Source: an uncultured Planctomycetales bacterium
GTDB taxonomy: Bacteria; Omnitrophota; Gorgyraeia; Zapsychrales; JBDRMG01
Reading direction: 5' to 3'
NCBI GenBank assembly: GCA_964478715.1
Contig: CAYZIY010000001.1
Location: forward strand, 73,088 to 137,087
DNA length: 64,000 nucleotides
The position numbers and the translations under genes were made by a program. Under the pieces are notes generated by a model. It did not search any database. It was not told the DNA's origin and saw nothing but the letters and a program-made list of their open reading frames with translations. Position 1 is the first letter of the stretch; every line of letters starts with the position of its first letter. This document shows, piece after piece, positions 37,693 to 60,013 of the stretch.

Positions 37693-37748
37693 AGAATGAT
37701 GATAAAATAGCTTTTCCTGGGTCGAAATTCATCTTATAATAGGGACCA

Positions 37749-38123: not shown

Positions 38124-38204
38124 AGTACCGGAAGTCTCATTTTATTTTACTCTACCCAGGATTAACAATAACGACTTACCGTTTTAATCGCTCGGAGATG
38201 GTTA

Positions 38205-44260: not shown

Positions 44261-44288
44261 TTTACTAATATTAATACTATGTTATAAT
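44261..44288 (+). promoter_or_regulatory. Putative promoter with extended -10 (TGtTATAAT) upstream of the 624-aa gene
   Basis: TTTACT - 16 nt - TGTTATAAT (44280-44288); preceded by a tandem 12-bp direct repeat. Confidence 0.35.
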
Positions 44289-44348: not shown

Positions 44349-46223
44349 ATGCAAAAAAGAGATCCAAGACACACGTTTTTTATCCCCGTTATGGGCACAG
44401 GCTATACCATGGACTCTCCCTTAAGGGTGGCTCCCTTTGGAATTTCTTCAGTGATTTCTCTGGTCGATGATGTGCTGATGGAGAAAATCCGGGAATACTA
44501 TTGCAAGCTTTTTAAGGAAAAATACGTTCCGATTCCTTCCAGCGAAGAGGATTGCCGTGCCAAACGCATCACGGCCTATTTGAATTTTATTCATAAACAC
44601 GCCTTGAAACGTTTCGAACAAATTCGCTGCGCCGATTTTAACCATAATATGGATATCAATAAATATTTCGAGATGCTTCCCAGCACCTGCCGCATTAGGA
44701 ATATTTATCTGCAGATGAAGAAGCTTGGCGATTCTACCGAAAAAAAGAGACTTCAAGAGCAATTGAGAGAGGTCATGCGTATCGGGAGCATCAATGTCAA
44801 TATCATGACCAAGCTGGATACCATGGCCCGGACTCCTGAGGGAACATTTGTCGCCAATGAATTCTCTAGCGCTCTGGCCGCCCTAAGAGGGTTTGCCCAT
44901 AGCACGCTCGATTCGGCGGTTGATTCGGCGGTTGTTTTTTCTGCCGGCATCAATCAGCGGCTTTACAGTTATGTTGCGGAGTTTAAAGACTTTTATGCCG
45001 ATTCCATGGGGCATGTCAAAAAGAAGGTGATTCTCAAAGTTAATGATTTCCGCTCAGCCTTGACGCAGGGAAAGATCTTTGCCAAAAAAGGTATTTGGGT
45101 TTCCGAATATCGTATTGAGTCAGGTTTAAATTGCGGCGGACACGCTTTTGGGGGTCAATGCAAGTTGTTGGGACCGGTTTTAGAGGAATTTCGCCAGAGG
45201 CGCGATACTTTGATCCAGAACCTCAGAGATATTTACCGCAAGACCTGCCAGAGTAAACAGTTGCCTCTGCTGGATCAGGAGCCTGATGCCCTCATTCAGG
45301 TTCAGGGAGGAATTGGGACAAATGGAGAGGATCGGTTTTTAAAAGAACATTACGGCGTGGATGAAACCGGGTGGGCTTCGCCTTTTCTTCTTTGCCCCGA
45401 GGTTTCCTCTGTCGATGATCAAACGCTTCAAGATTTATCGACCGCGCAAGAAGAAGATGTCGTTTTAAGCGAAACCTCGCCGATGGGAGTGCCTTTTTAT
45501 ACTCTTCAGAGTAGCTCGGCGGAAAAAGCCAAGCGCCGGCGACAACAAGAGGGTAATCAGGGTTTAACGTGCAGCAAGGGTTATCTCCGGCTGAATCAGG
45601 AATTTGAGAAGGCTCTTTGTCCGGCATCCAAATCTTACCAGAAATTAAAAATCGAATCGATGAAAAAACAGGGTGTTTCCGAAGAGGAATTCCGCAAGGT
45701 TCTCTGCAATCTGGGCGAGAAAGACTGTATTTGCCATCAGTTGGGCAACAGCATGATGAAAAAATACGGCCTTTCCATCAAAGGTCCCGGCGAGGTTGTG
45801 GTTTGTCCCGGGCCCAATTTGGTCTATTTTTCCCAAATTGTTTCTTTGAAAGAGATGATCGATCACATTTACGGCAAAGCCGATTTACTCAAAGGCGTTG
45901 AGCGGCCGCACATGTTTTTGAAAGAATTACAAATCAATATTCTGTATTTAAAAGATTTGCTGATTAAGGCTCAGGCGGATGAGCTTTCATCGCGAGACCA
46001 GCAAAATCTTTTAGCCTGTTTCCAAAATATTGAAGAGGGGATTGATTATTATTTGAATTTATTCAAAGAAGACCCGATCCGGTCTTTTCATGATGAAAAA
46101 TATCTTGAAAAACAATGGGAGCAATTTCAACAAATCAAGAGCCGGCTGGATCAGCTCAAGTCGGTCCGCTTGAGCTGTCAGAAGTCTCGGGAGTCCGAAG
46201 AGAAATTTGTCAGCCCAACTTAA
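44349..46223 (+). CDS. Uncharacterised 624-aa protein; possible divergent FMN-dependent NMO/FabK-like TIM-barrel motifs
   Basis: PVMGTGYTMDSPLRVAPFGISSV (compare NMO PIIQGGM...AAVS), ESGLNCGGHAFGG (compare EAGGH) and IQVQGGIGT (compare AAGGI). The rest, including the Cys-containing C-terminal half, is unrecognised. Confidence 0.45.
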   Translation: MQKRDPRHTFFIPVMGTGYTMDSPLRVAPFGISSVISLVDDVLMEKIREYYCKLFKEKYVPIPSSEEDCRAKRITAYLNFIHKHALKRFEQIRCADFNHNMDINKYFEMLPSTCRIRNIYLQMKKLGDSTEKKRLQEQLREVMRIGSINVNIMTKLDTMARTPEGTFVANEFSSALAALRGFAHSTLDSAVDSAVVFSAGINQRLYSYVAEFKDFYADSMGHVKKKVILKVNDFRSALTQGKIFAKKGIWVSEYRIESGLNCGGHAFGGQCKLLGPVLEEFRQRRDTLIQNLRDIYRKTCQSKQLPLLDQEPDALIQVQGGIGTNGEDRFLKEHYGVDETGWASPFLLCPEVSSVDDQTLQDLSTAQEEDVVLSETSPMGVPFYTLQSSSAEKAKRRRQQEGNQGLTCSKGYLRLNQEFEKALCPASKSYQKLKIESMKKQGVSEEEFRKVLCNLGEKDCICHQLGNSMMKKYGLSIKGPGEVVVCPGPNLVYFSQIVSLKEMIDHIYGKADLLKGVERPHMFLKELQINILYLKDLLIKAQADELSSRDQQNLLACFQNIEEGIDYYLNLFKEDPIRSFHDEKYLEKQWEQFQQIKSRLDQLKSVRLSCQKSRESEEKFVSPT

Positions 46224-46590
46224 AAATCCACGGATTATTTTTTTTGCCCTTCTTTTACTTTGCATTCTTGCTTTTCCCATTCTCCTTTTTAGAAGCTCAT
46301 CGATCCATTCTGAGCCCGCTGATGAGAATCAAATCTGCGGTATAGAGTCATGTCATGGGCTTGATATTTCTTGCGGAGAGAATGTTCCCGAGGCTTGCAC
46401 CAGGCTCTATAGGATAGGTGATTTTTGCAGACAATATGCCCGTTGTGAAATAATCAACGGTCAATGCCAGCTGATAAAAGACTCTCAATTTGAAGATTGC
46501 AAATCGTCTGTGGAGCGATGTCTTCAGATTAAAGATCATGGCGAACAACTTGACTGCGAAGCCCGATGTCGTCAGCAAATAAATCCATGA
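46207..46590 (+). CDS. Small secreted cysteine-rich protein (127 aa, 12 Cys); TTG start overlapping the upstream stop
   Basis: Signal peptide RIIFFALLLLCILAFPILLF. The mature part has 12 Cys in about 95 aa. There is no internal Met, so a non-ATG start is required. Confidence 0.45.
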   Translation: MSAQLKNPRIIFFALLLLCILAFPILLFRSSSIHSEPADENQICGIESCHGLDISCGENVPEACTRLYRIGDFCRQYARCEIINGQCQLIKDSQFEDCKSSVERCLQIKDHGEQLDCEARCRQQINP

Positions 46591-46621
46591 TAAAACGCAC
46601 CGTTATCAAGAGAGGTTCTTT

Positions 46622-46996
46622 ATGCCTAAGAAAATCCTGATTATTGAAGACGACAAAGACGTTTCCAGCCTGTTGGAGTCGCGCCTGAAGACCGAAGGGT
46701 ACGATATCATCAAGGCCGACAATGGGATCGATGGTTATGAAACGGCCAAATCCCAAAAACCCGATTTAATTATTACCGATGTTATGCTTCCCAAAACAGA
46801 CGGTTATCATCTCTGCCGTATGTTGAAATACGATGATAAATATAAATCCATTCCCGTTATGATGTTGACTGCCAAAGGAGAAGATGAGGATGAGGTCATC
46901 GGTAAGGGGGTGGGCGCGGATTGCTATATGACGAAACCTTTTGATGGCAGAATTCTTATTGAAAAAGTGCAGAGACTTTTAGATTCATCCTCTTAG
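46622..46996 (+). CDS. Single-domain response regulator (receiver only)
   Basis: 124 aa REC with an acidic pocket (EDD), Asp in IITDVMLP and Lys in YMTKP. Confidence 0.8.
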   Translation: MPKKILIIEDDKDVSSLLESRLKTEGYDIIKADNGIDGYETAKSQKPDLIITDVMLPKTDGYHLCRMLKYDDKYKSIPVMMLTAKGEDEDEVIGKGVGADCYMTKPFDGRILIEKVQRLLDSSS

Positions 46997-47011
46997 CCGC
47001 AGAGTCGTTTT

Positions 47012-48463
47012 ATGAAGGCGCAAACCAATCTGAAGCAAAAATTCGTTCTGGTTTTCTCAAGTTTTGTTTTTCTTCTCTTTACGCTTAAAATTATTTTCCG
47101 CTTAGGCGGATTCGTTCTTCTTTCTAAGCGTGATCATCACTTCCGGCAGAGTCTAAGCCAACAAGGGGTCATCAGAATTCTGTGCCTGGGAGAATCCACC
47201 ACGTATATGGGTGAACAAAACGCCTTTCCTCGTCAGCTGGAAGCCCTTCTGAATCAAAAAAGCAGAAAAACATTTTTCGTCATCAACGGCGGTGTGGCTT
47301 CTATTACCTCCGAGGGCATAGTTGCGGACTTAAAGTCCAATATTCTGCGGTATCGGCCTGATATCGTTATTGTTATGATGGGGATTAACGACGATGAGAA
47401 GACCAAGCCGTTTCGGGATTCTTTCCAAACATACGCGGGGCTTTTTATAAAAAATATTCGCGTGGTGAAGTTTGCTGAGTTGATATGGAAGCATCTTCGT
47501 TATAAATTGATGGAAATAAGAGCGTCTGCTCAATCGGGACAGGAATTATTAAAAAGGACAAAAGGCAATGAATATGAAAACTATTTAAGGATGAAGATTG
47601 TAGACCGCCCCCGGGAATCCTGGGGATACCGTGAGCTTAGAGTTTATTATGAGAAACGGGGACAGCTGCTTCAGGCCGAGAAAATTTACTTTCAGGCCAT
47701 GCTCTCCAATCCTAAAAAAGAATTCGGTTATGATATCTTGCGTCAATTTTTATTGCGTCAAAAACGAGCGACAGAAGCAGAATCTTATTTGAATAAGGCG
47801 ATGCGGCGTAATCCTACGAAATACTGGCCGCATCGCCTTTGGGGACATTACTATACCTCAATCGCCGATTATGAGAAAGCGCAGGAATCTTATCAAAAAG
47901 CCATCGAAATGAGTTTTGACAGATCAACATCTGAGGCCGCTCCTCTCTACAGAGACCTTGCCCTGATGCTTGAGAAAAGAGGCCACTGCAAACAGGCCGG
48001 TGAGATTCTAAAAAAAGCCTGCTCAATTCAGGCTGATATTTTCAGCCAAGATATTTTGAAGCAGTGCTATCCAAATCAGAGTTTATCTGTCAGGCGAAAA
48101 GATTTTAGACAAGATACTTTGGAGTTTCCCGTTAGGAAAATTGAATACAAGCAGGCAACCGTAGATAATTATCGTCTTCTAGCTGAAATTCTTAATGATC
48201 ATTATATTCAACTCATTGCTATGCAGTATCCGATGGTAGAATTGCATGGTTTGAGGGAGGCGCTTAAGGATGTTCCTGTTTTCGCTTTTGCCGGTAATAT
48301 TGATCGTTTTCAGAGATTTTTAAATAAAGATGGGTTTGACGAATATTTCACGGATCGTTTTGGTGGAACATTCGGCCACTGCAGTACTCAGGGAAACAGA
48401 CTTATCGCCGAGAATCTTGTGGAAATAATTTTAGATAGACTCTCACAACAAGGTAACCCATAG
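47012..48463 (+). CDS. SGNH/GDSL-like hydrolase domain plus TPR repeat protein
   Basis: N-terminal TM helix; block I ILCLGESTT (Ser nucleophile) and VVMMGINDDE; C-terminal half with TPR-like helices. Confidence 0.5.
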   Translation: MKAQTNLKQKFVLVFSSFVFLLFTLKIIFRLGGFVLLSKRDHHFRQSLSQQGVIRILCLGESTTYMGEQNAFPRQLEALLNQKSRKTFFVINGGVASITSEGIVADLKSNILRYRPDIVIVMMGINDDEKTKPFRDSFQTYAGLFIKNIRVVKFAELIWKHLRYKLMEIRASAQSGQELLKRTKGNEYENYLRMKIVDRPRESWGYRELRVYYEKRGQLLQAEKIYFQAMLSNPKKEFGYDILRQFLLRQKRATEAESYLNKAMRRNPTKYWPHRLWGHYYTSIADYEKAQESYQKAIEMSFDRSTSEAAPLYRDLALMLEKRGHCKQAGEILKKACSIQADIFSQDILKQCYPNQSLSVRRKDFRQDTLEFPVRKIEYKQATVDNYRLLAEILNDHYIQLIAMQYPMVELHGLREALKDVPVFAFAGNIDRFQRFLNKDGFDEYFTDRFGGTFGHCSTQGNRLIAENLVEIILDRLSQQGNP

Positions 48464-48542
48464 AGTTTTCAATTGTATTGTCCTCTGATTTATATTAAAC
48501 TGAAGATGAAATCGATGACAAATAAGCTCATTTTTATTTCTT

Positions 48543-49034
48543 ATGTCGACGAATAAGCCACAATATAATTTTTTATTAGTTATTCTATCTGTCGTTTTGT
48601 TTTATATGACTTGGTCTCCCCTTTTCGCTTTTAGTGACAACGATGATCATGAGGATCCTTTGATAATCCGTCTGAAGAAAAAATCCAAATACAAAGATCA
48701 CCGATGGCACCGAAATAGCATGTTTGAAGACTGGAAAAAAGACCGTAAGGGCCAAGACGAATGGAACCGGATTCGCGGCGATAAAAACGATTCCTATGAA
48801 CAAGAACGCGCTAAGCGTCAGGCTCATTGGCGGGACAAAAAGAAGAAATCCGAAAAGCAGGGGAAAGAAGATAAGAGAAAGGGACGCCTGGACTGGCGAG
48901 ACACCAAGGTTCGCAGCAAAGATGAATGGTTATTTAAGCGCAAGATTACCAAAGAAGATTGGAAGAAAAAGAAACATAATAAAAAATACGAAAAGGAAGA
49001 TCGTCATTGGGAATATCGCGATCCCAGCGACTGA
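48543..49034 (+). CDS. Secreted, highly charged low-complexity protein with periodic Trp (163 aa)
   Basis: A signal peptide, then a K/R/D/E-rich sequence with (D/E/H)W spaced about every 10-14 residues. Confidence 0.45.
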   Translation: MSTNKPQYNFLLVILSVVLFYMTWSPLFAFSDNDDHEDPLIIRLKKKSKYKDHRWHRNSMFEDWKKDRKGQDEWNRIRGDKNDSYEQERAKRQAHWRDKKKKSEKQGKEDKRKGRLDWRDTKVRSKDEWLFKRKITKEDWKKKKHNKKYEKEDRHWEYRDPSD

Positions 49035-49046
49035 GGTGATGATTCG

Positions 49047-49658
49047 ATGCAGGAATTGATGAATTCAATCGGTGTTCTTATGGGAGGATCGTGGGCAGCA
49101 GGTGTCAATCTGTATTTAACCACGGCTGGATTGGGATTTGCCCATCGAATGGGCTGGGTCCAGCTTCCCGGTAACTTGGAATACCTTCAGCATCCGCTGG
49201 TCATTGGAACCGCGGTTTTACTTTACGGGGTCGAATTTTTCGCCGATAAGATTCCCTGGGTGGACACGACATGGGATAGTATCCATACTTTTATCCGGCC
49301 CGCAGGCGGAGCGGCTTTAGGATATATGGCCATGGCAGATGTTGGTTCAGCTGTTCAGGTTCCCGTGGCTTTGTTGACCGGTTCGATTGCGCTCGATTCT
49401 CATCTAACCAAGGCTACAACCCGGGCGGCGATCAATACCTCCCCCGAGCCGGTTACCAATTCCGTGGCTTCCGTCACTGAGGATATTTCAGTTGCTGGCA
49501 TCATTTATCTGATTATCCAGCATCCAATAATCGCGGCCATTTGCGTGATTGCTTTCATTCTTTTTTCTGTTTGGTTTTTAAAGAAAATGTGGAGATTTCT
49601 TAAAAAAATTTTCTCAGGAAAAAATGCGCAAGAGAATCCCAAAACGCAGGCTGTTTAA
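49047..49658 (+). CDS. DUF4126-family membrane protein
   Basis: 203 aa with 4-5 TM helices and a G-rich N-terminal helix (GGSWAAGVNLYLTTAGLG). Confidence 0.45.
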   Translation: MQELMNSIGVLMGGSWAAGVNLYLTTAGLGFAHRMGWVQLPGNLEYLQHPLVIGTAVLLYGVEFFADKIPWVDTTWDSIHTFIRPAGGAALGYMAMADVGSAVQVPVALLTGSIALDSHLTKATTRAAINTSPEPVTNSVASVTEDISVAGIIYLIIQHPIIAAICVIAFILFSVWFLKKMWRFLKKIFSGKNAQENPKTQAV

Positions 49659-49687
49659 ATTTTCATCATTTAATCAAGGAATGAAAA

Positions 49688-50059
49688 ATGCACAAAATTC
49701 TCATTATTGAAGATAATATGGAAGTGGCCAAATTGCTGAACGACCGCTTTATCGCTGAGGGTTTTGAAACAGCCGTTTGCTATGATGCCTATCAGGGGGT
49801 CGAATTTTCTCATAAAACAAAGCCTGACGTGATTCTTCTGGATTTAATGATTCCCGCCGGCGGGGGATTAAATGTGTTAAGGAATTTACGAATGTCGGGA
49901 TTCACGAAGTTTACGCCGATTGTTGTCTTGACCGGTTCGCGCAATCCGCAGGATCAGGAAAAAGCCAAAGAACTGGGAGCTAATGCGTATCTGGGAAAAC
50001 CTTTTGATTCCGGTGAATTGGTCGGGATCGTTCGCAGTTTTCTAAAGGGAGAGGCGTGA
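49688..50059 (+). CDS. Single-domain response regulator
   Basis: 123 aa REC (IIEDN..., LLDLMIP, GKP). Confidence 0.8.
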   Translation: MHKILIIEDNMEVAKLLNDRFIAEGFETAVCYDAYQGVEFSHKTKPDVILLDLMIPAGGGLNVLRNLRMSGFTKFTPIVVLTGSRNPQDQEKAKELGANAYLGKPFDSGELVGIVRSFLKGEA

Positions 50060-50433
50060 ATCTTTTCATTCTCATTGTCGATGACGAACCGCAGGATGCC
50101 TGGGCCATCACCCGGACTCTGCAAAAAGCGGGATACGAGCAGATTGCATGCGTGGATAGCCCTCGAGAGACCTTGGAAATTCTTAAAGATAAGCATCCCG
50201 ATCTGATCCTGATTGATGTGGTTCTCAAAGGAGATGATGGTTTTGATCTATGCAAAGAGCTCCGGGAAAAGAACCATTATCAGGGTCTGATTATTATGAT
50301 CACAGGACATCTTGACGCCATCATTGCTGACAAAGCCCGCCTATCCGGTGCCGATGAAATCATTGAAAAAATTCCGGAATTTACCAATATCCAACCCGCC
50401 ATTACCCGCCTTTTAAGCCAAAAGGAAAACTAA
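50056..50433 (+). CDS. Single-domain response regulator (GTG start)
   Basis: 125 aa REC (IVDDEP, LILIDVVL). Confidence 0.7.
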   Translation: MNLFILIVDDEPQDAWAITRTLQKAGYEQIACVDSPRETLEILKDKHPDLILIDVVLKGDDGFDLCKELREKNHYQGLIIMITGHLDAIIADKARLSGADEIIEKIPEFTNIQPAITRLLSQKEN

Positions 50434-50491
50434 GTTCTTTTTTAATTCCCGGATATCTCTTTGTATTCGCATTTCAGGCTTGATATAATAT

Positions 50492-52453
50492 TTGCACGTA
50501 AATCCTTTTGAAATAAACGCCATGTTTGAAGAACTGAAACTAAAAAATCTGCGCTTAAGAGTCAAGCTGGTCTTGCTTCTTTTATTGATTTCCGTCATTC
50601 CTCTTTTAGCTATCAGCATATCCAATTATTTTTATGCTAAATCGGAATTGGAGAAAACCACGATTGAAAATCTCCGCGCGGTTAACAATTCCCGAGCGGC
50701 TTATATCAATCATTCCATCCAGCTGCGGCAGGAGCAGGCTAAGGCTTTTGCCGGTGCCTATCTTCCCCGCCAGCTGAGTGAATCCGGCTATAATGATCCG
50801 GCTTTGATCAAAGGCATCCAGGAAGACATTGAATCAACGTTTCGCGATTTGAATCAAGAGCCTACCAGTCCTTATCAGGACATCGACAAAAAGACGGATA
50901 TTGCTATCATCAGCATTTGGGATGTCCTGGGGAATATCGTCGCTTCGACCAATAAAGAATTGATCAACAGAAAAATGCCTATCGATTTTCTTCAAAAGGT
51001 TTTTGATCGCAAGGGAACCTACTTTGCTGGATTTCAGAAGGATCCGCTCACCGGTAAGAATTTGCTGATTATTTTGGAAGAGATCAGAAACTGGAAAACA
51101 AACCGCCTGGTGGGTGTCGTGTCTCTTAAGGTCAGTACCAAAACGCTTAATGAAATCACGACCGAAAGGGAGGGTTTAGGTTACAGCGGAGAGACTTACC
51201 TCGTTGATAGAAATTATTTGATGATCACGCCTTCGCGTTTTGTCGACGATTCCATCCTCAATAGGCGCGTGATTACACTCGGAACGCAGGCTTGCCTTAA
51301 AAGCAATAGCTATGCGGGTATTTATAAAAATTATCTCAATAAGGATGTTCTGGGTGTTCAGAAATATCTGCCTGATCAAAAATGGTGCCTTATTTCCGAG
51401 GTTGATGCCGGGGAAGCCTTAAGGCCTGTCCAGGAATTGCGCACACGCACGCTTGTCCTTGGCGGTTTGCTGATTTTTGTTATTTTAATCTTTGCTTATC
51501 TGGCCAGTCATACTTTAATCAAACCGATTCTGAAACTGCACGAGGCTTCTCAGAAAATCAAGAGGGGGCAGTTTGATATTACCGTTCAAGCTGAGGGTCG
51601 CGATGAAATTGCCGACTTATCGCGGGCTTTCAACGAAATGGCCAAGAGTCTTAAATTAGCCAATCAAGAACTCGAAGAAAAATCAAAGATCCTGTTCCAG
51701 AATCTGGCGGTTTCAACCAGCCAGAAAAAGGAATTAAAGAAAGTCAATCAGGAGTTGGATAGTTTTGTCTATACGGCGAGTCATGATTTGCGCGCACCCT
51801 TGCGGGCCATTGCCTCTTTTGCCACATTTTTGGAGGAGGATTATAAAGGCAAGCTGGGCACCGAGGGTCAGGAATATATCGATGAGATCCGAAAGGGCGC
51901 TACAAAGATGAATGCTTTTATCGAGGATCTTTTGACGCTTTCAAGAATCAGTCGGATTAAAAATCCTTATGAAGATGTCGATATCCGCATGGTTTTGGAA
52001 ACAGCGATTGAGCGGTTAAAGTTTGAGATAAAAGAAAAACAGGTCAATCTTGTTGCGGTCCAGCATTTGCCGGTCATGCATTGCGATCGCATCAAAATAA
52101 CCGAAGTCTTTTATAATCTGATCAACAATGCGATCAAATTTTCTTCTAAAAATAATAAAGAGAATCCCCGTGTGAAAATCGGATATGCTAAAATCGGAGA
52201 CTTGCATCAATTTTTTGTCAAAGATAACGGAATCGGTATCGACCCAAAATACCATGAGCAGATTTTCGGGATTTTTAAACGTCTGCATTCGGATAAAGAA
52301 TATGAAGGAACCGGTGCCGGTTTAAGCATTATCAAGAAAGTTATCGATGATCATCAGGGGAAAATCTGGGTCGAATCAGAGCTTGGAAAGGGAGCTGCGT
52401 TTTACTTTACGATTCCAGACAATCTCAGAGAAGATATAAGAAAACAGGAATAA
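50492..52453 (+). CDS. Sensor histidine kinase with periplasmic Cache-like sensor, HAMP, HisKA and HATPase_c
   Basis: TM1, about 270 aa periplasmic domain, TM2, HAMP (DEIADLSRAFNEMAKSL), H-box FVYTASHDLRAPL, and N/G1/G2 boxes (DNGIGI, GTGAGLSI). Confidence 0.8.
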   Translation: MHVNPFEINAMFEELKLKNLRLRVKLVLLLLLISVIPLLAISISNYFYAKSELEKTTIENLRAVNNSRAAYINHSIQLRQEQAKAFAGAYLPRQLSESGYNDPALIKGIQEDIESTFRDLNQEPTSPYQDIDKKTDIAIISIWDVLGNIVASTNKELINRKMPIDFLQKVFDRKGTYFAGFQKDPLTGKNLLIILEEIRNWKTNRLVGVVSLKVSTKTLNEITTEREGLGYSGETYLVDRNYLMITPSRFVDDSILNRRVITLGTQACLKSNSYAGIYKNYLNKDVLGVQKYLPDQKWCLISEVDAGEALRPVQELRTRTLVLGGLLIFVILIFAYLASHTLIKPILKLHEASQKIKRGQFDITVQAEGRDEIADLSRAFNEMAKSLKLANQELEEKSKILFQNLAVSTSQKKELKKVNQELDSFVYTASHDLRAPLRAIASFATFLEEDYKGKLGTEGQEYIDEIRKGATKMNAFIEDLLTLSRISRIKNPYEDVDIRMVLETAIERLKFEIKEKQVNLVAVQHLPVMHCDRIKITEVFYNLINNAIKFSSKNNKENPRVKIGYAKIGDLHQFFVKDNGIGIDPKYHEQIFGIFKRLHSDKEYEGTGAGLSIIKKVIDDHQGKIWVESELGKGAAFYFTIPDNLREDIRKQE

Positions 52454-52468
52454 AGGCGGATATAAATT

Positions 52469-52942
52469 ATGGAACAAAAAGAGAATCAACAACGCAAGAC
52501 GCGGGAGCTGAATATTTTACTGGTTGATGACAGCGAAGCCGACATCAAAATTGCTCAGCGGGCATTTGGTCAGGCCAAAATCAAAAACCGACTCTTCGTT
52601 GTCCAAAGCGCCCAGGAATGTTTCGATTTCATCTTTCATGACGGCTCCTATCGGGATTGCGGAAAGTATCTGTCTCCGGATTTAATCCTTCTGGATATCA
52701 GCATGCCTCAAATCGACGGGTTTGCTGTCTTAAAAAATCTCAAGCAAGAGGACGCGACAAAAGATATTCCCGTTATTATATTGACTGGGTCTAAAAACCA
52801 GGAAGATATTGGTAAAAGTTATCATATGCAGGCGGCTTCTTTCATTCAAAAACCGGTCACTTATGAACGATTTGTTGAGTTTATCGATGTGTTTAATGTT
52901 TACTGGAATATTGTTTGCAAATTGCCGCAAGCCAGCAAGTAG
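52469..52942 (+). CDS. Single-domain response regulator (Rcp1-like)
   Basis: 157 aa REC (ILLVDDSEAD, LILLDISMP, IQKP). Confidence 0.75.
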   Translation: MEQKENQQRKTRELNILLVDDSEADIKIAQRAFGQAKIKNRLFVVQSAQECFDFIFHDGSYRDCGKYLSPDLILLDISMPQIDGFAVLKNLKQEDATKDIPVIILTGSKNQEDIGKSYHMQAASFIQKPVTYERFVEFIDVFNVYWNIVCKLPQASK

Positions 52943-52955
52943 GAGGTTTTAAGGC

Positions 52956-54110
52956 GTGTCACAGAAGATATTGATCATCGAAGACAATGAACAAGATCAG
53001 AAAATCATCAGCCGGTTTCTTAAGAAATCCGATTATGAGGTCTGCGCTGTGGTTGACAGCGGTGAAAAAGGAATCGCAAGCGCCAAAGAATGCGCGCCTG
53101 ATATCATCATCCTGGATACCGTGTTGCCGGGAATGAACGGGTTCGAGACCTGCCGGATGCTCAAAACCACCGAGAAGGTGAAGACCAAAATTATTATCGC
53201 CACCGGCCGGCTGGATGCCGTCGATGCTCAGAAAGCCAAACAGGCCGGTGCCGATGATTATTGCGTGAAGACATCTGACTGCGCCTTGATTCTGGAAGCG
53301 ATCAGGAAGGTGTCCAGAGATCAAAAGGAAGATACCTGGGGTCTTCAAAAGAGCATGGAATGCGTCAAAATACTTTACCAGGAACTTGAGAAAAAGAATG
53401 CGGAACTGAAAAAGCTCAACACCTTACAGGCCGAATTTGTTTCTACGGCTTCTCACGAATTGCGCACGCCGTTAACGATCATTAAGGAAGCAATCAGCCA
53501 GGTCAACGAAGGACTCTTCGGCGAGGTCAATATCCAGCAAGCAGAGAAATTAGTCATGGCCATTGAGGGCGTTGATCGTCTCCGGCGCATGATTGACGAC
53601 CTCCTTGAGACCGCAAAATTGGAAGCCAAGAAAATCATACTCCATAAGAAAAAAATTGATCTGATCGAATTAGCTAGAGAAACCCAAACGCTTTTCTATC
53701 TGATGGCTCAGGAAAAAGAATTGAGCATTGATTGCCATCTGGCCTGCGATCAGCTGATCGTCGAAGCTGATCGGGACAGGATTCTTCAGGTCCTCATCAA
53801 TCTCGTCGGCAATGCGCTGAAATTTACCGAACAAGGACGGATCCTGATCACAGTCAAAGACTGTGATCCAAAGGCGGAATTCAGCGTTACCGATACGGGT
53901 TGCGGTATCGGCCGTGCTGATTTGGATAAAGTATTTTCCAAATTTGAGCAGTTTGGAAAATCCAACCTGACCCAGAAGGGAACCGGTTTGGGTCTGGCTA
54001 TCTCGAAAGATATTGTGGAATTGCACGGAGGTGCCATTTCTGTCGAAAGCGTTCCGGGCAAAGGTTCAACTTTTACCGTATGTCTTCCTAAAAAAGACGC
54101 AGGTCAATGA
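52956..54110 (+). CDS. Hybrid receiver-histidine kinase (REC plus HisKA plus HATPase_c, cytoplasmic)
   Basis: N-terminal REC (IIEDNEQD, IIILDTVLPG), H-box FVSTASHELRTPL, and ATPase N/G boxes (DTGCGIG, GTGLGLAI). No TM segments. Confidence 0.8.
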   Translation: MSQKILIIEDNEQDQKIISRFLKKSDYEVCAVVDSGEKGIASAKECAPDIIILDTVLPGMNGFETCRMLKTTEKVKTKIIIATGRLDAVDAQKAKQAGADDYCVKTSDCALILEAIRKVSRDQKEDTWGLQKSMECVKILYQELEKKNAELKKLNTLQAEFVSTASHELRTPLTIIKEAISQVNEGLFGEVNIQQAEKLVMAIEGVDRLRRMIDDLLETAKLEAKKIILHKKKIDLIELARETQTLFYLMAQEKELSIDCHLACDQLIVEADRDRILQVLINLVGNALKFTEQGRILITVKDCDPKAEFSVTDTGCGIGRADLDKVFSKFEQFGKSNLTQKGTGLGLAISKDIVELHGGAISVESVPGKGSTFTVCLPKKDAGQ

Positions 54111-54123
54111 GAGCAATACTATT

Positions 54124-54516
54124 ATGACTAAGAAAATCCTGATTGTCGATGATGAAAAAGATATCGCTCAGTTGATTGCCTTTCGATTGCAGGCTCATCG
54201 ATATAAAACCATTCTGGCTCATGACGGTGTCGATGGTCTGGCCAAAGCGAAAGAAGAAAATCCCGATCTTGTCATTCTGGATGTGATGATGCCCCGGCTC
54301 AATGGTTTTGAAGTCTGCCGCCTTCTCAAATTCGATGCGAAATATAAGAATATCCCTGTCATCTTTTTAACCAGCAAGAAAGAAGATGTGGATAAGGCGA
54401 TCAGCCAGGAGGTGGGCGCTGATGCCTATGTGACCAAACCTTTTGAGTCTAATGAGCTGATTGAGACTATTGGGAAAATCCTTCAATCCAAAGACACCTC
54501 TATTCCCGACGCATGA
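54124..54516 (+). CDS. Single-domain response regulator
   Basis: 130 aa REC starting at MTKKILIVDDEKD. The ORF track start at 54013 is an upstream in-frame extension without an RBS. Confidence 0.75.
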   Translation: MTKKILIVDDEKDIAQLIAFRLQAHRYKTILAHDGVDGLAKAKEENPDLVILDVMMPRLNGFEVCRLLKFDAKYKNIPVIFLTSKKEDVDKAISQEVGADAYVTKPFESNELIETIGKILQSKDTSIPDA

Positions 54517-55988
54517 TACAGGCCGGTAAAAAACTTTTCACTCAAGGAAACACGATTCTTTTTTTGATCCTTGCCTGTTCCTTTCTGTTGAACAATTTCA
54601 ATAATAATTTTTCTTTTGGATATCATTTTGATGAACCAAAAAAAATCAAGTTTATTGAACAAAAAGGGCATGATTTTCAGCATCCCTTGTTAATGACCAA
54701 GACCGTGGAGTGGGCCAACAGGGTTTTTGGTTTTGACACCAAGCAAGAAATTGTGCGATTAGGGCGGTTTTTTTCCGCCTTCTGGTTGACATTGATGATC
54801 TTGTTTCTTTATTATCTTCTGCGGTGTTTCCTCGGACAGTTTGAAACCCTGACTGTTTGTGCGCTTACGGCCGTCTCGCCGATCATTGTGGTGCATGCCC
54901 ATTATTTTAAGGAAGATGCGGCTCTGGTTTGTTTTTTGATGGCCGGTCTTTTGGGCCTGTTTCACTACAGCGAAAAAGCGACATCAAAGACGGCGCTATT
55001 GCTCGGTTTGGCCACCGGCTGCGCCGTTTCGTCCAAATATATCGGATTTCTCATTATTCCCCTTTATTTACTGACGCCTATGATCGCTCCGGTCCAAGAC
55101 CGGGCAAGATATTACCGGTTTCTTGCGCTTTCACTCGGTGTTGCCGGTTGTGTTTTCGCGGCCCTTAACTATTCCATGATCTGCAATTCAGAGATGGTCA
55201 AAGGTGCTGCCGGCTATACAGTTCGTCAGATCATAGAAGGTAATGCAGTAAGAATTTATCCCTGGCATTTCTTTTTGACTTTTCATCTGCGTTACAGTCT
55301 TTGGCCGGGATTAACCGGCTTGGTGTGCACCTTGTTTCTTATTGGATTTTTGCAGAGCATCTCTCAGTGGAAGAAAATCTGCTGGCAGGAAAGGATCTTG
55401 CTAAGTTACATCATTATCTTTTATCTGATTCCTGAGAATGCTCCGCTTAAAGCTTTTCCCGATTTTATGCGTTATATGTTACCCATTGTTCCGCTCTGTA
55501 TTTATTTTGCTTTTAAGGGAGCTCAAGAAATCAGCGGGATATTCAAACCCAAGAGCCGGAAAATAATTCACAAGGTCCTTATCGGTTTGATGATTTTGAT
55601 TTCACTGACCCACACAGTTTTGCTTGTTTATCATCTGGATCAAGACACACGCGAAAAAGCTAAGGCATGGTTGATGCAAGCACCGGAAAAATCGATGTGC
55701 GAACGTTATGTTTTTACCTATGATCTGATTAAATCATTAGCCCAATACGATGTTTCCCAGTGGCAACAAATGGGATTTCGCTATCTGGTGGCCAGCTCTT
55801 TTCAGTATGAACGTTACCTGTTGGCCGGACAGCTTTCAGGCCAGGAGGAAGAAGTTTATCGGTATGAAAAAAGATATCGCGAATTATTTTCCTATCCTTA
55901 TGAAGAAATCAAGCCGGCCTTCAAAAGTTTTGCCTTTAGCAATCCCGCTATTCGGATCATTGATCTAAAAGGAGAGAGCGCTCCGTGA
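54513..55988 (+). CDS. GT-C fold glycosyltransferase (PMT_2/ArnT-like), second copy in window
   Basis: 491 aa, polytopic, with an HFDEPK acidic motif in loop 1 and a C-terminal soluble domain. Confidence 0.45.
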   Translation: MIQAGKKLFTQGNTILFLILACSFLLNNFNNNFSFGYHFDEPKKIKFIEQKGHDFQHPLLMTKTVEWANRVFGFDTKQEIVRLGRFFSAFWLTLMILFLYYLLRCFLGQFETLTVCALTAVSPIIVVHAHYFKEDAALVCFLMAGLLGLFHYSEKATSKTALLLGLATGCAVSSKYIGFLIIPLYLLTPMIAPVQDRARYYRFLALSLGVAGCVFAALNYSMICNSEMVKGAAGYTVRQIIEGNAVRIYPWHFFLTFHLRYSLWPGLTGLVCTLFLIGFLQSISQWKKICWQERILLSYIIIFYLIPENAPLKAFPDFMRYMLPIVPLCIYFAFKGAQEISGIFKPKSRKIIHKVLIGLMILISLTHTVLLVYHLDQDTREKAKAWLMQAPEKSMCERYVFTYDLIKSLAQYDVSQWQQMGFRYLVASSFQYERYLLAGQLSGQEEEVYRYEKRYRELFSYPYEEIKPAFKSFAFSNPAIRIIDLKGESAP

Positions 55989-57040
55989 GACCCCCCGTGC
56001 GTTATGAGAGCCTTGATTTTCTTAAAGCCCTGGGAATTATTTATTTGATTGTTTTGCATCATCTGATTTGGGTGCTTCTTCTGGGCGATTACGGAACATT
56101 GAGATACGAGCAAGGCCGATCTTTGGGGATGGCTTTTGGGGTGCATAGCGGTCTGCACGTATTGGGCTTTCAGCTTCCTCTTTTGGCCGGGATGACATTC
56201 TTTATGATGCTTAAAACAAAAGACCTTGGATTTAAGGAGATAGCCTTAAGAGCGCTGATATTGTGTTTATTGGGTTTTATGATGAATTTATTTACCTGGG
56301 GTCCGCGGCATGCCTTTGATTGGGATGTTCTTCCCTTTATCGCTCTGTCTATGCTCATCGCTTATCCATTTTTGAGATTTTTCCCCACCGGCCTGGCTAC
56401 GTCGATTTTGATTCTGATTGGCATGATCGCTCTTCGATTTTCTTCTGCCTTTCCTTTTGGATTTCAGGACTATTATCTATATTATGTGATATTCGGAGAT
56501 CCTGCCGGCGGGCATTTCTGGCCATTGTGCCCGTGGTTTATCCTCTTTGCTTTAGGAATTTTCACGGGCGATGTCTTCTGCTCTCAATCGAGGAAGATGA
56601 TGATTTTTTTGATTATTATTGGGGCGGTTTTATTGATCACTTCGATGACAAAAGGTGATTTCTTTCCGGCCAGTCGGGAAAATCAGGTTTGGGGGCCGGC
56701 CTTGTTTAAGCCTTCGCCGTATTTTGTCTTAGGGATTATGGGATTTAGCTTATCGGTTTTACCTTTAACTCATCTGATATTTGAGAAATGGAAAAGCGCG
56801 AGAGATTTCTTGAAACGCTCGGGTTTTCTGTATTTCAGTTATGGGATTTTATGGATCTATTTGATCTCAACCGTTGTGGGCTATCACCTGACCGTGCTAG
56901 TTTTAAATAGATTAAGTCTTGATTATGCCGGAGCCCTTGTGGCCTTGACAATGTTGATTCTGTTTCAGTTGGTTGTGGCATTTTTCATCGGCAAGACTAT
57001 TTTTGAAATAAAGAAAAACAATAAGGAGAGACTGTCTTGA
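55985..57040 (+). CDS. Acyltransferase family 3-like integral membrane protein
   Basis: 351 aa, about 10 TM helices, with an N-terminal RYESLDFLKALGIIYLIVLHH motif typical of the acyltransferase_3 family. Confidence 0.4.
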   Translation: MRPPVRYESLDFLKALGIIYLIVLHHLIWVLLLGDYGTLRYEQGRSLGMAFGVHSGLHVLGFQLPLLAGMTFFMMLKTKDLGFKEIALRALILCLLGFMMNLFTWGPRHAFDWDVLPFIALSMLIAYPFLRFFPTGLATSILILIGMIALRFSSAFPFGFQDYYLYYVIFGDPAGGHFWPLCPWFILFALGIFTGDVFCSQSRKMMIFLIIIGAVLLITSMTKGDFFPASRENQVWGPALFKPSPYFVLGIMGFSLSVLPLTHLIFEKWKSARDFLKRSGFLYFSYGILWIYLISTVVGYHLTVLVLNRLSLDYAGALVALTMLILFQLVVAFFIGKTIFEIKKNNKERLS

Positions 57041-57711
57041 TTTTTGGTATCAAGTTTCTCTTGGCTTTTTGTAGCATCACTTATGAGCTGATTCTCGCGC
57101 AGTGTCTGGCCGCGTTTTTGGAGAATACCGTCTTACGCTATAGCGTGACCGTTGGTCTATACTTGTTTTCGATGGGCGTGGGCAGTTTTCTAGCGGAAAA
57201 AAAGACCAAGCATGCAGCCAAGACACTTCTGCGCGCGGAAGCTCTTCTGGTTCTTTGCGGGGGGTTAAGCGTTGTCTTTCTTTTTGCCGTAGATTATCTA
57301 AGCGGATCCCGTATAGTTTTTTCGGCGATAGCCCACGGGCTCATAGTGTTGATTGGTATATTAACCGGTTTGGAGCTGCCTTTGTTGATTCACCTGCAGG
57401 AAAAAAGAAGCCAGGACTTAGAGCATCAGATGATCGGATTTGATTATGCCGGTGCCTTTGCCGGGACTTTGTTTTTTGTCTTTGTGATCTTTCCCCGCTT
57501 TGGGCTTGTGGCCGGCAGTTTCTTTGTCGGGCTGATCAATGCTCTGACGGCTGCAACTCTTTTTTGGGCCTTGTTACCGCAAAAGGGCAGGGATCGGCCA
57601 ATGGCATTAAGGGTTATTGTGTTATACCTCATAATCTCTGTCGCATTTTGTGTTTTTTTATGGAACAGCGGTCAAATATCCCGGATTTTGATTGAGGGCT
57701 ATCTTCACTAA
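57037..57711 (+). CDS. Membrane protein homologous to the N-terminal TM domain of membrane-fused spermidine synthase (no catalytic domain); TTG start
   Basis: 224 aa. Its N-terminus (FCSITYELILAQCLAAFLENTVLRYSVTVGLYLFSMGVGSF) parallels the SpeE TM domain at 58154 (CSMIYELLLAQAIVERAGNTVVWYSLTIGLYLAAMGLGAF). Confidence 0.5.
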   Translation: MIFGIKFLLAFCSITYELILAQCLAAFLENTVLRYSVTVGLYLFSMGVGSFLAEKKTKHAAKTLLRAEALLVLCGGLSVVFLFAVDYLSGSRIVFSAIAHGLIVLIGILTGLELPLLIHLQEKRSQDLEHQMIGFDYAGAFAGTLFFVFVIFPRFGLVAGSFFVGLINALTAATLFWALLPQKGRDRPMALRVIVLYLIISVAFCVFLWNSGQISRILIEGYLH

Positions 57712-57720
57712 GGGGGCCAT

Positions 57721-58077
57721 ATGCATAAGAAATTAACCAAGGAATTCGGCAAACATTATCTGGTGGAATTCATTAAATGCAACAGCGATAAACTGAAATA
57801 TGTCAAAGACGTACAGGAACCTTTATCGGAGGCTGCGCGTCTGAGTGAGGCTCATATTTTCAGCCATCATTTTCATCAATTTGAGCCGGTGGGGGTCACG
57901 GGTATTATCTTGATCGGATGGTCCCATTTTTCTGTGCATACCTGGCCGGAAGATCAATATGTGACTTTCGATATTCTTACCTGCGGCAAGATGTCACCCG
58001 ATAAAGCCATCGATTATCTTCAAGATTATTTTGAGGCCAAGCAGATTGAATTAAAAGTTATTCCAAGGGGATTTTAG
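57721..58077 (+). CDS. speH: S-adenosylmethionine decarboxylase proenzyme (small bacterial class)
   Basis: 118 aa with the HYLVEF...C and SHFSVHTWPE (Ser-pyruvoyl site) signatures. Confidence 0.7.
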   Translation: MHKKLTKEFGKHYLVEFIKCNSDKLKYVKDVQEPLSEAARLSEAHIFSHHFHQFEPVGVTGIILIGWSHFSVHTWPEDQYVTFDILTCGKMSPDKAIDYLQDYFEAKQIELKVIPRGF

Positions 58078-58153
58078 CCGAAAATATGCAAAAGAAGCAA
58101 TTTGTTTCTTTTAGATCGAAAGCAGTGTCTTATAAACCATCAACCGAAGTGAA

Positions 58154-60013
58154 ATGATTTATCTCATAACTTTTCTTTGTGCGGCCTGCAGTATGATTTA
58201 CGAGCTTCTCTTGGCTCAGGCCATCGTTGAGCGGGCCGGTAATACCGTGGTCTGGTATTCGTTAACGATTGGTTTGTATTTAGCGGCTATGGGCCTCGGT
58301 GCTTTTGCTTCTCGGCGTATTTCCAAAGATCGGCTTTGGCCGGGATTGTTCAAAGTCGAAATGATTTTAAGTCTGACTGGAGCTCTGTCGGTGATCTGGG
58401 CTTTTTCTTCCTATATTCTTTTCGTTGTTTTATGGGCCGGTTATGTTTGGCAGTTGAGTCATGTCTTATTTTTTCTGCTGTCTTTCGCGATGATCCTGAC
58501 TATAGGATTTTTCACAGGATGTGAATTGCCTCTTTTGATCCGCATTGAAAAAAGATCCGCCACCGGTCAAAATTTAACCGCACGCGTTTTAAGCATTGAT
58601 TATCTGGGTTCTCTAGCCGGCGCCTTGTGCTTCTCGCTTTTCTTGCTCCCGCGGTTTTCGTTGATTGTAATCAGTTTGATGACAGCCCTGGTGAATTTGA
58701 TTTTAGCCTTTTTTATTGCCTTGCGCTTTATTTCTCAAAAGAGAGAGAAGAAGATTGTTCTTTGCGCAATGTTTTTTGTGATATTGATCGCTGTGTGTCT
58801 GCGCCTTGAGAGCATCGAGCAGTATTTCCTGAAAAGATATTATTATTACGATATCCAAAGCGAAAATCCCTGGAAATTGTTTTGGCTTGGAAATGACCAT
58901 TCGCCGGTTAAGCGCATCCGCTCCGCCTACCAGACTATTGATCTGGTTCAGACTCAAGGGTATGCGATGCCTTTTTCATTGATTAAAGATTTTTATAGCC
59001 AGAAGGCCTTGCTGGAAAAAGATTATCCGCGAAATACAGCTCTTTATCTGGATGGTCAGCTTCAGTTTTTATCGGATTCGGAAGAGATTTATCATGAGTA
59101 TTTCGCTCATGTGCCCGTGATTCTCAAAAGACGAGTGCCTAAAGATGTTTTGGTTTTAGGCGCCGGGGACGGCCTTTTGGTTCGCGAGTTGGCCAAATAT
59201 ACCGATATCAAGAGCATCACTGTTGTTGAAATTGATCCCCGGATGATCGAACTGGCCAAAGGACATCCTGTTTTTCTGGATCTCAATAAAGGGGTTTTTT
59301 TTGATCTGCGGGTTAAAATTATCGTGGAAGACGCCTATCATTATGTAAAGAACACCGAAGATAAATTCGATGCCATTTATATGGATTTTCCTCACCCAAA
59401 GGATTATAAGCTGAGCAAGCTTTATAGCCGCGAGTTTTATTATTTTGTGCGCCGAGCTCTAAAGGCAGATGGTTTTGCCGTGATGGATGCACCTTCGATC
59501 AATCTTTTCAAGACAAATGTTCCAGGAGGTATTTCTCTAAGCCCGTTGAACATGTGGCCGGTTTATGTGAATACCTTAAAAAGCGCCGGATTTAAAGGGA
59601 TTATTCCTTTTTCGTCTTTGATGGAGCCAGATAATCCAAAGGCGGTTACAGCGATCAAAAAGCAGATTGGACAAGCCGAGGCGATTATTGTTGAGGAATT
59701 CGACTTACGTGGTTATTCCCAAAAGGTGATTGAAGGACAAAATAATATTGTTTCCCAAATATTAAAAGATTTTATTGCTGATCATGCACAAGGGTTTATC
59801 TTTCTGCAAAATAAGCCATTATCGGCTGTCTTCAATTACAAGGATCCGGGTATTCCCCTGTATGTTCTTAATAAAGAAAGATTTGACGCGGCGTTTTCTT
59901 ATCCTCTATCATCCGGCAAGCAGGATGATGTTTTCTTCCCTCTGGTCAACACAATCCTCTGCCCGAGTCTCCCAAATTCTCATTATTGGCTTCGCCTTAA
60001 ACTTCCAAATTAA
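58154..60013 (+). CDS. speE: Membrane-fused spermidine/polyamine aminopropyltransferase
   Basis: About 220 aa polytopic N-terminal domain, then a class I MTase/spermidine synthase core (VLVLGAGDGLLVRE..., VVEIDPRMIELAK, EDAYHYV). Confidence 0.7.
   Translation: MIYLITFLCAACSMIYELLLAQAIVERAGNTVVWYSLTIGLYLAAMGLGAFASRRISKDRLWPGLFKVEMILSLTGALSVIWAFSSYILFVVLWAGYVWQLSHVLFFLLSFAMILTIGFFTGCELPLLIRIEKRSATGQNLTARVLSIDYLGSLAGALCFSLFLLPRFSLIVISLMTALVNLILAFFIALRFISQKREKKIVLCAMFFVILIAVCLRLESIEQYFLKRYYYYDIQSENPWKLFWLGNDHSPVKRIRSAYQTIDLVQTQGYAMPFSLIKDFYSQKALLEKDYPRNTALYLDGQLQFLSDSEEIYHEYFAHVPVILKRRVPKDVLVLGAGDGLLVRELAKYTDIKSITVVEIDPRMIELAKGHPVFLDLNKGVFFDLRVKIIVEDAYHYVKNTEDKFDAIYMDFPHPKDYKLSKLYSREFYYFVRRALKADGFAVMDAPSINLFKTNVPGGISLSPLNMWPVYVNTLKSAGFKGIIPFSSLMEPDNPKAVTAIKKQIGQAEAIIVEEFDLRGYSQKVIEGQNNIVSQILKDFIADHAQGFIFLQNKPLSAVFNYKDPGIPLYVLNKERFDAAFSYPLSSGKQDDVFFPLVNTILCPSLPNSHYWLRLKLPN

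Follow-up and report, generated by a model that had tools for sequence, protein, structure and literature searches.

Kinases and receivers of the cluster

The window analysed here is a 64,000-nucleotide stretch of contig CAYZIY010000001.1 from an uncultured bacterium that GTDB places in the Omnitrophota, and the closest relatives of several of its proteins come from metagenome-assembled genomes of Candidatus Omnitrophota; identical proteins are present in the Logan assemblies of SRR7048227 and SRR7048228. Within positions 46622-54516, Pfam scans identify five stand-alone receiver (Response_reg, REC) proteins along with two histidine kinases, a membrane kinase with a HAMP domain and a putative Cache domain (HK1) and a cytoplasmic hybrid of a receiver and a kinase (HK2), which confirms the inventory given in an earlier, sequence-only reading of this DNA. 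The core of the cluster is one conserved five-gene module: the single-domain receiver REC-A, the dCache kinase HK1, the receiver REC-B, the REC-kinase HK2, and the receiver REC-C. The cluster in the window consists of this module and two lineage-specific receivers (REC-X1 and REC-X2), with three unrelated genes interleaved (Table 1). The rest of the window holds housekeeping genes, including lipid A genes, aminoacyl-tRNA synthetases, ClpC/McsB, LptFG, SmpB, and transfer-messenger RNA (tmRNA).

A hidden Markov model (HMM) of the REC domain, built from the receiver sequences of the window and run over all six frames of the 64 kb, found eight receiver domains rather than the nine counted earlier. 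When aligned with CheY, all eight retain the acidic pair, the acceptor Asp, the Thr or Ser, and the Lys (positions 12/13, 57, 87, and 109), and therefore none is a pseudo-receiver; both cluster kinases have full HisKA and HATPase_c matches. Pfam shows no output domain on any receiver. The REC match covers residues 4-116 of proteins of 123-130 amino acids (aa), nearly the whole of each chain, which leaves no space for a hidden helix-turn-helix or other output domain; REC-B (157 aa) has only an Rcp1-type extension beyond its REC domain, and no other significant Pfam match occurs in the stand-alone receivers. The earlier statement that no receiver is fused to an effector thus survives a check for cryptic output domains, and because no receiver has an output domain, the proposal of signalling through protein-protein contacts or multi-step phosphotransfer is supported. 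Naming the receivers after known single-domain families was rejected, all scores being far under cut-off: none reaches the NCBIfam cut-off for the EpsW, DVU0259/DivK, CpdR, or CheY families (best 58-79 bits, with cut-offs of 160-200). The density of receivers in the cluster is far above background, with six REC genes in 7.9 kb compared to 18 REC open reading frames (ORFs) in 610 kb at other Omnitrophota loci, although this background is not independent because all of its loci were fetched around one same gene.

Table 1. Positions of the cluster genes and of the separate 7TM-kinase set in the window.
Feature	Position	Strand	Size and matches
REC-C, single-domain receiver	49688-50059	+	123 aa; Pfam 79.7 bits
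REC-A, single-domain receiver, first module gene	50056-50433	+	125 aa; Pfam Response_reg 78.7 bits
HK1, membrane sensor histidine kinase	50492-52453	+	Pfam dCache_1 (under gathering score), HAMP, HisKA, HATPase_c
REC-B, Rcp1/RcpA/RcpB-type single-domain receiver	52469-52942	+	157 aa; PDB sequence matches
HK2, cytoplasmic REC-HisKA-HATPase_c hybrid	52956-54110	+	Pfam REC 85, HisKA 48, HATPase_c 106 bits
REC-X1, extra single-domain receiver	46622-46996	+	124 aa; Pfam 90.9 bits
REC-X2, extra OmpR/PhoB-type single-domain receiver	54124-54516	+	130 aa; Pfam 94 bits
Interleaved SGNH/GDSL hydrolase with TPR	47012-48463	+	Pfam
Interleaved charged Trp-rich ORFan	48543-49034	+	163 aa; no homologue
Interleaved DUF4126 membrane protein	49047-49658	+	Pfam
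HisKA_7TM kinase (His285)	36199-37692	+	Pfam
NtrC-type single-domain receiver, first paralogue	37749-38123	+	Pfam
NtrC-type single-domain receiver, second paralogue	38205-38579	+	Pfam

A five-gene module in other Omnitrophota

The order REC-A, HK1, REC-B, HK2, REC-C is identical in six complete contigs (L104, L105, L106, L112, L113, and L114), which are longer sequences anchored on HK2 (46-50% identity), and the same order is found, as far as the contigs reach, in five partial Omnitrophota contigs (L083-L087), which are metagenome sequences anchored on HK1 (63-73% identity). Identity of the module proteins between the window and these relatives is 41-73%. Orthologues of HK1 are 58-73% identical; those of REC-B (49-57%) are directly 3' of HK1 in all contigs, and those of REC-A (41-50%) have the same position in L084, L085, L104-L106, and L112-L114, while 28 clusters with the domain order of HK2, at 45-54% identity, were taken as its orthologues. 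The receivers of the relatives have 120-133 aa (REC-A), 144-160 aa (REC-B), and 120-123 aa (REC-C). Upstream of the module, L104-L106 carry NUDIX, RtcB, archease, and a secreted MORN-repeat protein, L112 carries peptidase S11, and L113 carries RecJ; on the downstream side, the module is followed by a flavodiiron protein and IlvD in L104-L106 and L114, by glycogen phosphorylase in L112, and by flavin reductase in L113. Since the order is kept while the flanks differ, the five genes travel as a unit. The question of whether these genes are clustered or scattered in relatives, raised by the sequence-only reading itself, is answered by the clustering of the core genes in 11 other contigs.

By best reciprocal similarity, the genes at 50056, 52469, and 49688 are those of REC-A, REC-B, and REC-C. 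REC-C is the best match (45-55%) of the terminal receiver in L083, L104-L106, and L112-L114, ahead of the receivers at 54124 (REC-X2) and 46622 (REC-X1); in the window it lies just 5' of REC-A, with a four-base overlap, and it has thus been relocated in this genome from its place after HK2 to one upstream of REC-A. The slot after HK2 is filled by REC-X2, which is not an orthologue of the terminal receiver of the relatives, but is 50% identical to REC-X1 and 49% identical to a terminal receiver of a paralogous module in L108. No orthologue of REC-X1 was found near the module in relatives. The receivers had been described as orphans, and they are indeed stand-alone and without output domains, but they do not form one undifferentiated set: they divide into those of the five-gene module, two extras, and a separate 7TM-kinase system.

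These comparisons bear on the simplest alternative, in which independent two-component pairs have come to lie side by side by chance or recent insertion and share no pathway. The REC-X1, REC-X2, and 7TM-kinase genes are not conserved with the module, and the genome has clearly been rearranged, as the move of REC-C indicates, which such an origin would explain; however, the five core genes keep the same order in 11 other contigs despite their differing flanks, and HK2, whose only sensor is its own receiver, therefore needs an upstream kinase. A chance assembly is distinctly improbable.

Homologues of HK2 at about 38% identity occupy modules of the same logic with other sensors. One (L107) has a PAS kinase, a receiver, and a REC-kinase followed by two REC proteins of about 260 aa; another (L108) has a MORN protein, a Cache/PAS kinase, a REC-kinase, and two receivers, with a PilZ gene one gene later; and the third (L109) has a HAMP kinase, a 147-aa receiver, a REC-kinase fused to GGDEF and a further REC, and then two receivers. 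The next-closest homologues of HK2 (36-41% identity) are also fused to GGDEF, with the order REC-HisKA-HATPase-GGDEF and sometimes an additional REC (L109, 7001-9004; P0030-P0069). With the PilZ gene of L108, which comes two genes after the last receiver, they suggest that sister modules feed signalling by cyclic di-GMP (c-di-GMP). The theme of the module is common in these bacteria, and in some variants it appears to be tied to c-di-GMP; the module in the window has no c-di-GMP-related domain.

Directly 5' of the module in three contigs is a MORN-repeat protein of about 390-440 aa with a signal-peptide-like N-terminus (L104, 5767-6987; L105, 5819-7000; L106, 5749-6972), and another MORN protein is directly upstream of the paralogous module in L108 (2975-4294). 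The window has no counterpart of the proteins in L104-L106. The MORN protein may be an accessory partner of these sensor kinases.

Proposed phosphotransfer and known parallels

HK1 has a first transmembrane segment, a putative periplasmic dCache domain, a second transmembrane segment, HAMP, HisKA (His431, H-box SHDLRAPL), and HATPase_c. The hydrophobic segments are at 18-49 and 315-347, with about 265 residues between them, and the public gene call begins at an ATG at about 50522 to give a protein of 643 aa. The dCache_1 match of HK1 is 32.5 bits, under the gathering score of 45; the orthologues in L105 and L114 carry unmarked dCache_1 matches. The best solved relatives of the kinase core are bacteriophytochrome kinases (9ys3 and 8uph, 143 bits, compared with 113 bits for HK853), but Pfam detects no PAS-GAF-PHY photosensory module in HK1, the kinase adjoining REC-B. 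REC-B, which retains D20/D21, D76, T106, and K128, belongs by sequence to the Rcp1-type family of phytochrome regulators. It carries the internal insertion of the Rcp1 family and a C-terminal aromatic extension (FNVYWNIV), and its top PDB matches are 5te9, RcpB (1k66), 5ic5, 5brj, 6xvu, RcpA (1k68), and Rcp1 (1i3c), at 68-90 bits, in alignments that include both the extension and an Asp in helix α1.

HK2 has an N-terminal receiver (D54), a long helix with His167 (H-box SHELRTPL), a complete ATP-binding domain, and no hydrophobic segment. In its AlphaFold2 model (pLDDT 88.6), the receiver (residues 1-120) is joined by a nine-residue linker to a single 55-residue helix (130-184) that bears His167, with the CA domain following; the model is a monomer, which gives the domain order but not how the receiver controls a dimeric kinase. 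Among solved structures, HK853 entries come closest to the core, and Pfam finds no HWE_HK match in HK2, only the HisKA core. REC-A is a paralogue of the HK2 receiver (40% identity). It retains D9/D10, D54, T83, and K105, but its aromatic switch position is taken by Ile and its conserved Lys is not followed by Pro, two features that are kept across orthologues; the HK2 receiver and its orthologues also have no Pro after this Lys. The absence of the aromatic switch and of the Pro suggests that REC-A would be better suited to the role of a competitor or sink than to that of an effector. REC-C retains E8/D9, D52, T82, and K104, and its solved relatives include Spo0F (about 61 bits).

The α1 helix of a receiver contacts the kinase, as work on kinase-regulator specificity has established, and the receivers of the cluster fall into two sequence classes at the contact positions in this helix. 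REC-A, REC-B, and the HK2 receiver have x-E-x-D-x-K in common, while REC-C, REC-X1, and REC-X2 have Val or Ile at the position of the Asp. This α1 Asp, which comes four positions past the second acidic residue, recurs in each of the five phytochrome-type regulators aligned. The His-bearing helices of the DHp domains are near-invariant within each orthologue group and differ between HK1 (SHDLRAPLRGIASFATFLEEDY) and HK2 (SHELRTPLTIIKGAISQV).

The gene content, the intact catalytic and acceptor residues, the conserved gene order, and the two sequence classes are seen directly; the pairing of kinases with receivers, the sign of the effect of D54, and the kind of output are inferred. The module probably works as a two-kinase phosphotransfer cascade rather than a classical relay, branched like the BphP1-AgR-ExsG-ExsF pathway but with a chemical sensor, a reading to which we give a probability of roughly 0.55. 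HK1 would sense a periplasmic small molecule through its dCache domain, autophosphorylate on His431, and pass phosphate to three receivers of one specificity class: REC-B, the HK2 receiver (on D54), and REC-A. As a free paralogue of the HK2 receiver, REC-A would most likely compete with it for phosphate, and threshold and timing would be set by this sink or decoy. Phosphorylation of D54 would switch the autokinase of HK2 by way of the helical connection between the receiver and the His167 helix, and HK2 would in turn phosphorylate the second specificity class, which includes REC-C and, in this genome, probably also REC-X1 and REC-X2. The output would be post-translational, with phosphorylated single-domain receivers binding target proteins.

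In Rhizobium NT-26, BphP1 transfers phosphate to AgR and to the receiver at the N-terminus of ExsG, and the autokinase of ExsG is thereby inhibited; ExsG in turn phosphorylates ExsF, whereas AgR and the receiver of ExsG itself are not among its substrates (PMC3899027). The four roles of this pathway, which is found in Rhizobium NT-26 and Agrobacterium, match those of the module one to one, and the genes are adjacent in both: BphP1 corresponds to HK1 (both with a phytochrome-type transmitter), AgR to REC-B, ExsG to HK2, and ExsF to REC-C. The corresponding four-gene set of the window (50492, 52469, 52956, and 49688) is conserved in 11 other contigs, and no component of either system has an output domain. 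There are also differences: the input of BphP1 is a PAS-GAF-PHY photoreceptor, while that of the module is a putative periplasmic dCache-HAMP sensor; the core of ExsG is HWE, while that of HK2 is classical HisKA; and the module has REC-A as a fifth conserved component, plus the two extra receivers in this genome. The NT-26 pathway is an experimental precedent for just this topology. A second parallel is in Rhodospirillum centenum, where CheA3 phosphorylates a receiver of CheS3, and CheS3 phosphorylates CheY3 (PMC3868531). As proposed for the module, an upstream kinase controls a second kinase through its N-terminal receiver, and only the second kinase phosphorylates the terminal regulator; however, the upstream kinase is a CheA in a chemosensory cluster with MCP, CheW, CheB, and CheR, and CheS3 has two receivers, a PAS domain, and an HWE core. 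The module would work like the BphP1 and CheA3 cascades, but is not of the same family in the strict sense.

Two kinds of kinase-regulator pairs resemble parts of the module. REC-B shares the aromatic extension and the α1 Asp with the regulators of Cph1-Rcp1 and bacteriophytochrome pairs (1i3c, 1k66, 1k68, 6xvu, and 8avv), to whose kinases the HK1 core is closest, but the module has no phytochrome photosensory part and its pair is embedded in a larger two-kinase module. The core of HK2 is closest to HK853 of Thermotoga maritima (2c2a and 3dge), and REC-X2 is single-domain like RR468, the partner of HK853; in contrast to HK2, HK853 lies in the membrane and lacks an N-terminal receiver, and HK853-RR468 has only two components. 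DivK, CpdR, and the four-component RedCDEF system of Myxococcus are examples of single-domain regulators that act as hubs, sinks, or allosteric effectors. Others act as hubs (MrrA, PMC5964349) or as direct activators of enzymes (EpsW-EpsZ, PMC12802240), and stand-alone receivers make up about 40% of archaeal regulators (PMC5847659). Like the regulators of the MrrA and EpsW type, those of the module would have an output without a fused effector, through protein-protein contact or competition for phosphate; unlike the EpsW, DVU0259/DivK, CpdR, and CheY families, they were not assignable to any of these by NCBIfam.

A classical His-Asp-His-Asp phosphorelay is the alternative closest to such a cascade. 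The receivers would then be Spo0F-like shuttles to an Hpt or Spo0B-like protein and an output regulator encoded elsewhere, or HK2 would be a fused shuttle in which phosphate passes from the receiver to His167 and on to REC-C. The many stand-alone receivers without an output domain and the presence of Spo0F among the solved relatives of REC-C are what such a relay would show, and its partners could lie beyond the 64 kb of the genome at hand. No Hpt family matched among the roughly 60 window ORFs scanned, however, in agreement with the sequence-only reading, and the annotations of six other genomes show none within 7-10 kb of the module. A C-terminal receiver is missing from HK1, the ATP-binding domain of HK2 is complete (106 bits), unlike that of Spo0B, and in the two REC-kinase hybrids that have been characterised, the kinase domain did not phosphorylate its own receiver (PMC3899027, PMC3868531). 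A relay of this kind is unlikely. Stand-alone receivers are also the usual output of chemosensory systems, and a switch in which they act on pili or flagella as CheY-like or PilG/PilH-like proteins could be pictured from two N_methyl (prepilin-type) genes 4 kb from the module in L112 and from the PilZ gene that follows the paralogous module in L108. Against this, no CheA, CheW, MCP, CheB, or CheR family matched in the window or is annotated near the module in relatives, and no receiver reaches the cut-off for CheY; a role in motility is very improbable.

Some points also weigh against the cascade. The sequence classes behind the assignment of partners come from about seven orthologue sets, a number too small for covariation statistics. 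Since the core of HK2 is HisKA rather than HWE as in ExsG and CheS3, the direction of regulation may differ. A DNA-binding regulator or an Hpt protein may be encoded elsewhere in the genome, the search having covered 64 kb. Gaps inside the module are -4 to 58 bases, but nearly the whole window is co-directional with short gaps, and tight spacing therefore says little about operon membership. Scans for promoters and terminators were uninformative, because promoter-like sites exceed those of shuffled sequences but are scattered over both strands; the sole suggestive pair combines a promoter-like site (44261-44288) with a terminator-like hairpin (59907-59930) and was given no weight as evidence. 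Rfam and tRNA scans of the window found no regulatory RNA in the cluster, only the tmRNA and one tRNA-Leu.

The layout of the module is already known from the light-sensing pathway of Rhizobium, and the module is a variant rather than a new kind of system, one that leaves the general understanding of two-component signalling unchanged. It nevertheless offers a compact natural case of signalling from kinase to kinase with bare receivers as the only outputs, and it is conserved in an uncultivated phylum for which most of the biology has been deduced from genomes. If HK1 and REC-B work as proposed, a chemical sensor can take the place of a light sensor in front of a phytochrome-type transmitter and its regulator. 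The cluster provides seven small soluble proteins and one sensor as a defined set for phosphotransfer profiling, and REC-A, as a free paralogue of the kinase's own receiver, would be a clean test case for the idea of a decoy or phosphate sink.

Lineage-specific receivers and other genes of the window

REC-X1 retains E9/D10, D53, T83, and K105, and three non-signalling genes separate it from the module. The ORF list gives REC-X2 a longer form with a TTG start at 54013, while the public gene call is 130 aa; its best PDB matches are the receivers of VicR, YycF, and PhoP, with RR468 among its solved relatives, and its stop overlaps the start of a PMT_2 glycosyltransferase gene by four bases. A conserved link between a receiver and PMT_2 was considered and rejected, because the two PMT_2 relatives examined have no REC neighbour and are in sugar-modification clusters.

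The sequence-only reading took the interleaved secreted or unusual proteins as signs of an envelope or surface-remodelling module. Taken further, this would mean that the receivers, especially REC-X1 and REC-X2, directly regulate the SGNH-TPR, DUF4126, PMT_2, acyltransferase, and polyamine proteins. All genes at 44349-60013 are on the + strand with gaps of -17 to 79 bases, REC-X2 and PMT_2 overlap, and activation of a glycosyl-phosphate transferase by direct binding of a single-domain regulator is known (EpsW-EpsZ, PMC12802240). An SGNH-TPR gene is 2.5 kb downstream of the module in L113, and a gene for a membrane spermidine-synthase-like protein is near it in L083. However, the genes for DUF4126, the Trp-rich protein, and the Cys-rich protein are beside the module in none of the 11 other contigs, SGNH-TPR is near it in L113 only, neither of the two PMT_2 relatives has a receiver beside it, and co-directionality makes adjacency weak evidence. 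The envelope link thus has weak support at best, and direct regulation of this kind by the two extra receivers is quite unlikely. A related conjecture, drawn by analogy with the activation of EpsZ by EpsW and of low probability, is that Omnitrophota have a circuit of only kinases and bare receivers, without a transcription factor, that acts directly on enzymes or machines, and that in this genome REC-X1 and REC-X2 connect it to the neighbouring genes for the lipid-linked glycosyltransferase, the acyltransferase, and the polyamine enzymes. If true, the circuit would switch cell-surface chemistry post-translationally in a nanobacterium that depends on a host.

The Trp-rich protein has an N-terminal hydrophobic segment, 78 charged residues (K, R, D, or E) out of 163, and nine Trp, of which several are spaced by about 11 or 22 residues. 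It matches only itself in a set of 1.84 billion representative proteins, and relatives therefore allow no inference about it; it is either a strain-specific secreted protein or no real gene. The Cys-rich protein (46207-46590, + strand) has 127 aa with an N-terminal hydrophobic segment, 12 Cys, and no family match; its ORF overlaps the end of a gene for a 624-aa protein by 17 bases, and the sequence with its TTG start is absent from the protein collection.

Neither Pfam nor NCBIfam nor the PDB sequences gave a match for the 624-aa protein (44349-46223, + strand). Its homologues number at least 8000, in Omnitrophota, Bacteroidota, and Ignavibacteria, with the source name "hypothetical protein" in all cases; the 80 relatives fetched are 43-51% identical. 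Synteny was also sought through this gene, but none of the 80 loci has the cluster, the anchor being too widely conserved and too distant; in L017, L020, and L060, an SGNH-TPR gene comes after the homologue. Its AlphaFold2 model (pLDDT 87.6) matches the Helicobacter dehydrogenase/isomerase FabX (Foldseek E 4e-9, target TM-score 0.68), followed by FabK and nitronate monooxygenases, and by this model the protein would belong to a large FabX-like family that is uncharacterised. The motif NCGGH and six Cys, all invariant, point to a flavin mononucleotide barrel with an Fe-S cluster.

The sequence-only reading also placed a giant "kinase-domain" protein at the flank of the cluster. This ORF (60311-64000, + strand) has at least 1230 aa and a signal-like N-terminus, and its sequence matched nothing in Pfam, NCBIfam, or the PDB; it starts 5.8 kb downstream rather than adjacent to the cluster and runs off the end of the window. 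Giant genes have been reported for this phylum, and the ORF may be the start of one. Polyamine genes in an unusual arrangement are at 57037-60013 (+ strand): first comes a 224-aa multi-span membrane protein, which resembles polyamine aminopropyltransferase in the N-terminal part of that enzyme only, then AdoMet decarboxylase, and last a 619-aa membrane protein with a spermidine-synthase domain; a 777-aa relative is near the module in L083.

The kinase and two tandem receivers noted earlier at 36199-38579 are real, and they form an independent system, 8 kb from the main cluster with housekeeping genes between, including those for tRNA-Leu, SmpB, and tmRNA. The two receivers are 55% identical to each other, and their best NCBIfam matches are the receivers of NtrC, ZraR, and AtoC, all far under cut-off. 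The tmRNA gene (41958-42343, + strand) encodes the tag ADYNPVAEAEAILAEAPVLA and is directly 3' of smpB, while the tRNA-Leu(CAG) gene near it is on the - strand (40026-40109). The window has two GT39 (PMT_2, ArnT-like) membrane glycosyltransferases, at 30713-32467 and at 54513-55988 (both + strand), and the first adjoins a GT2 gene and an acyltransferase gene. Two fusions also occur, both on the + strand: a 443-aa protein at 34371-35702 joins a Maf nucleotide pyrophosphatase to an M48 peptidase, and at the start of the window (38-928) the C-terminal part of LpxC is fused to a FabA/FabZ-like dehydratase.

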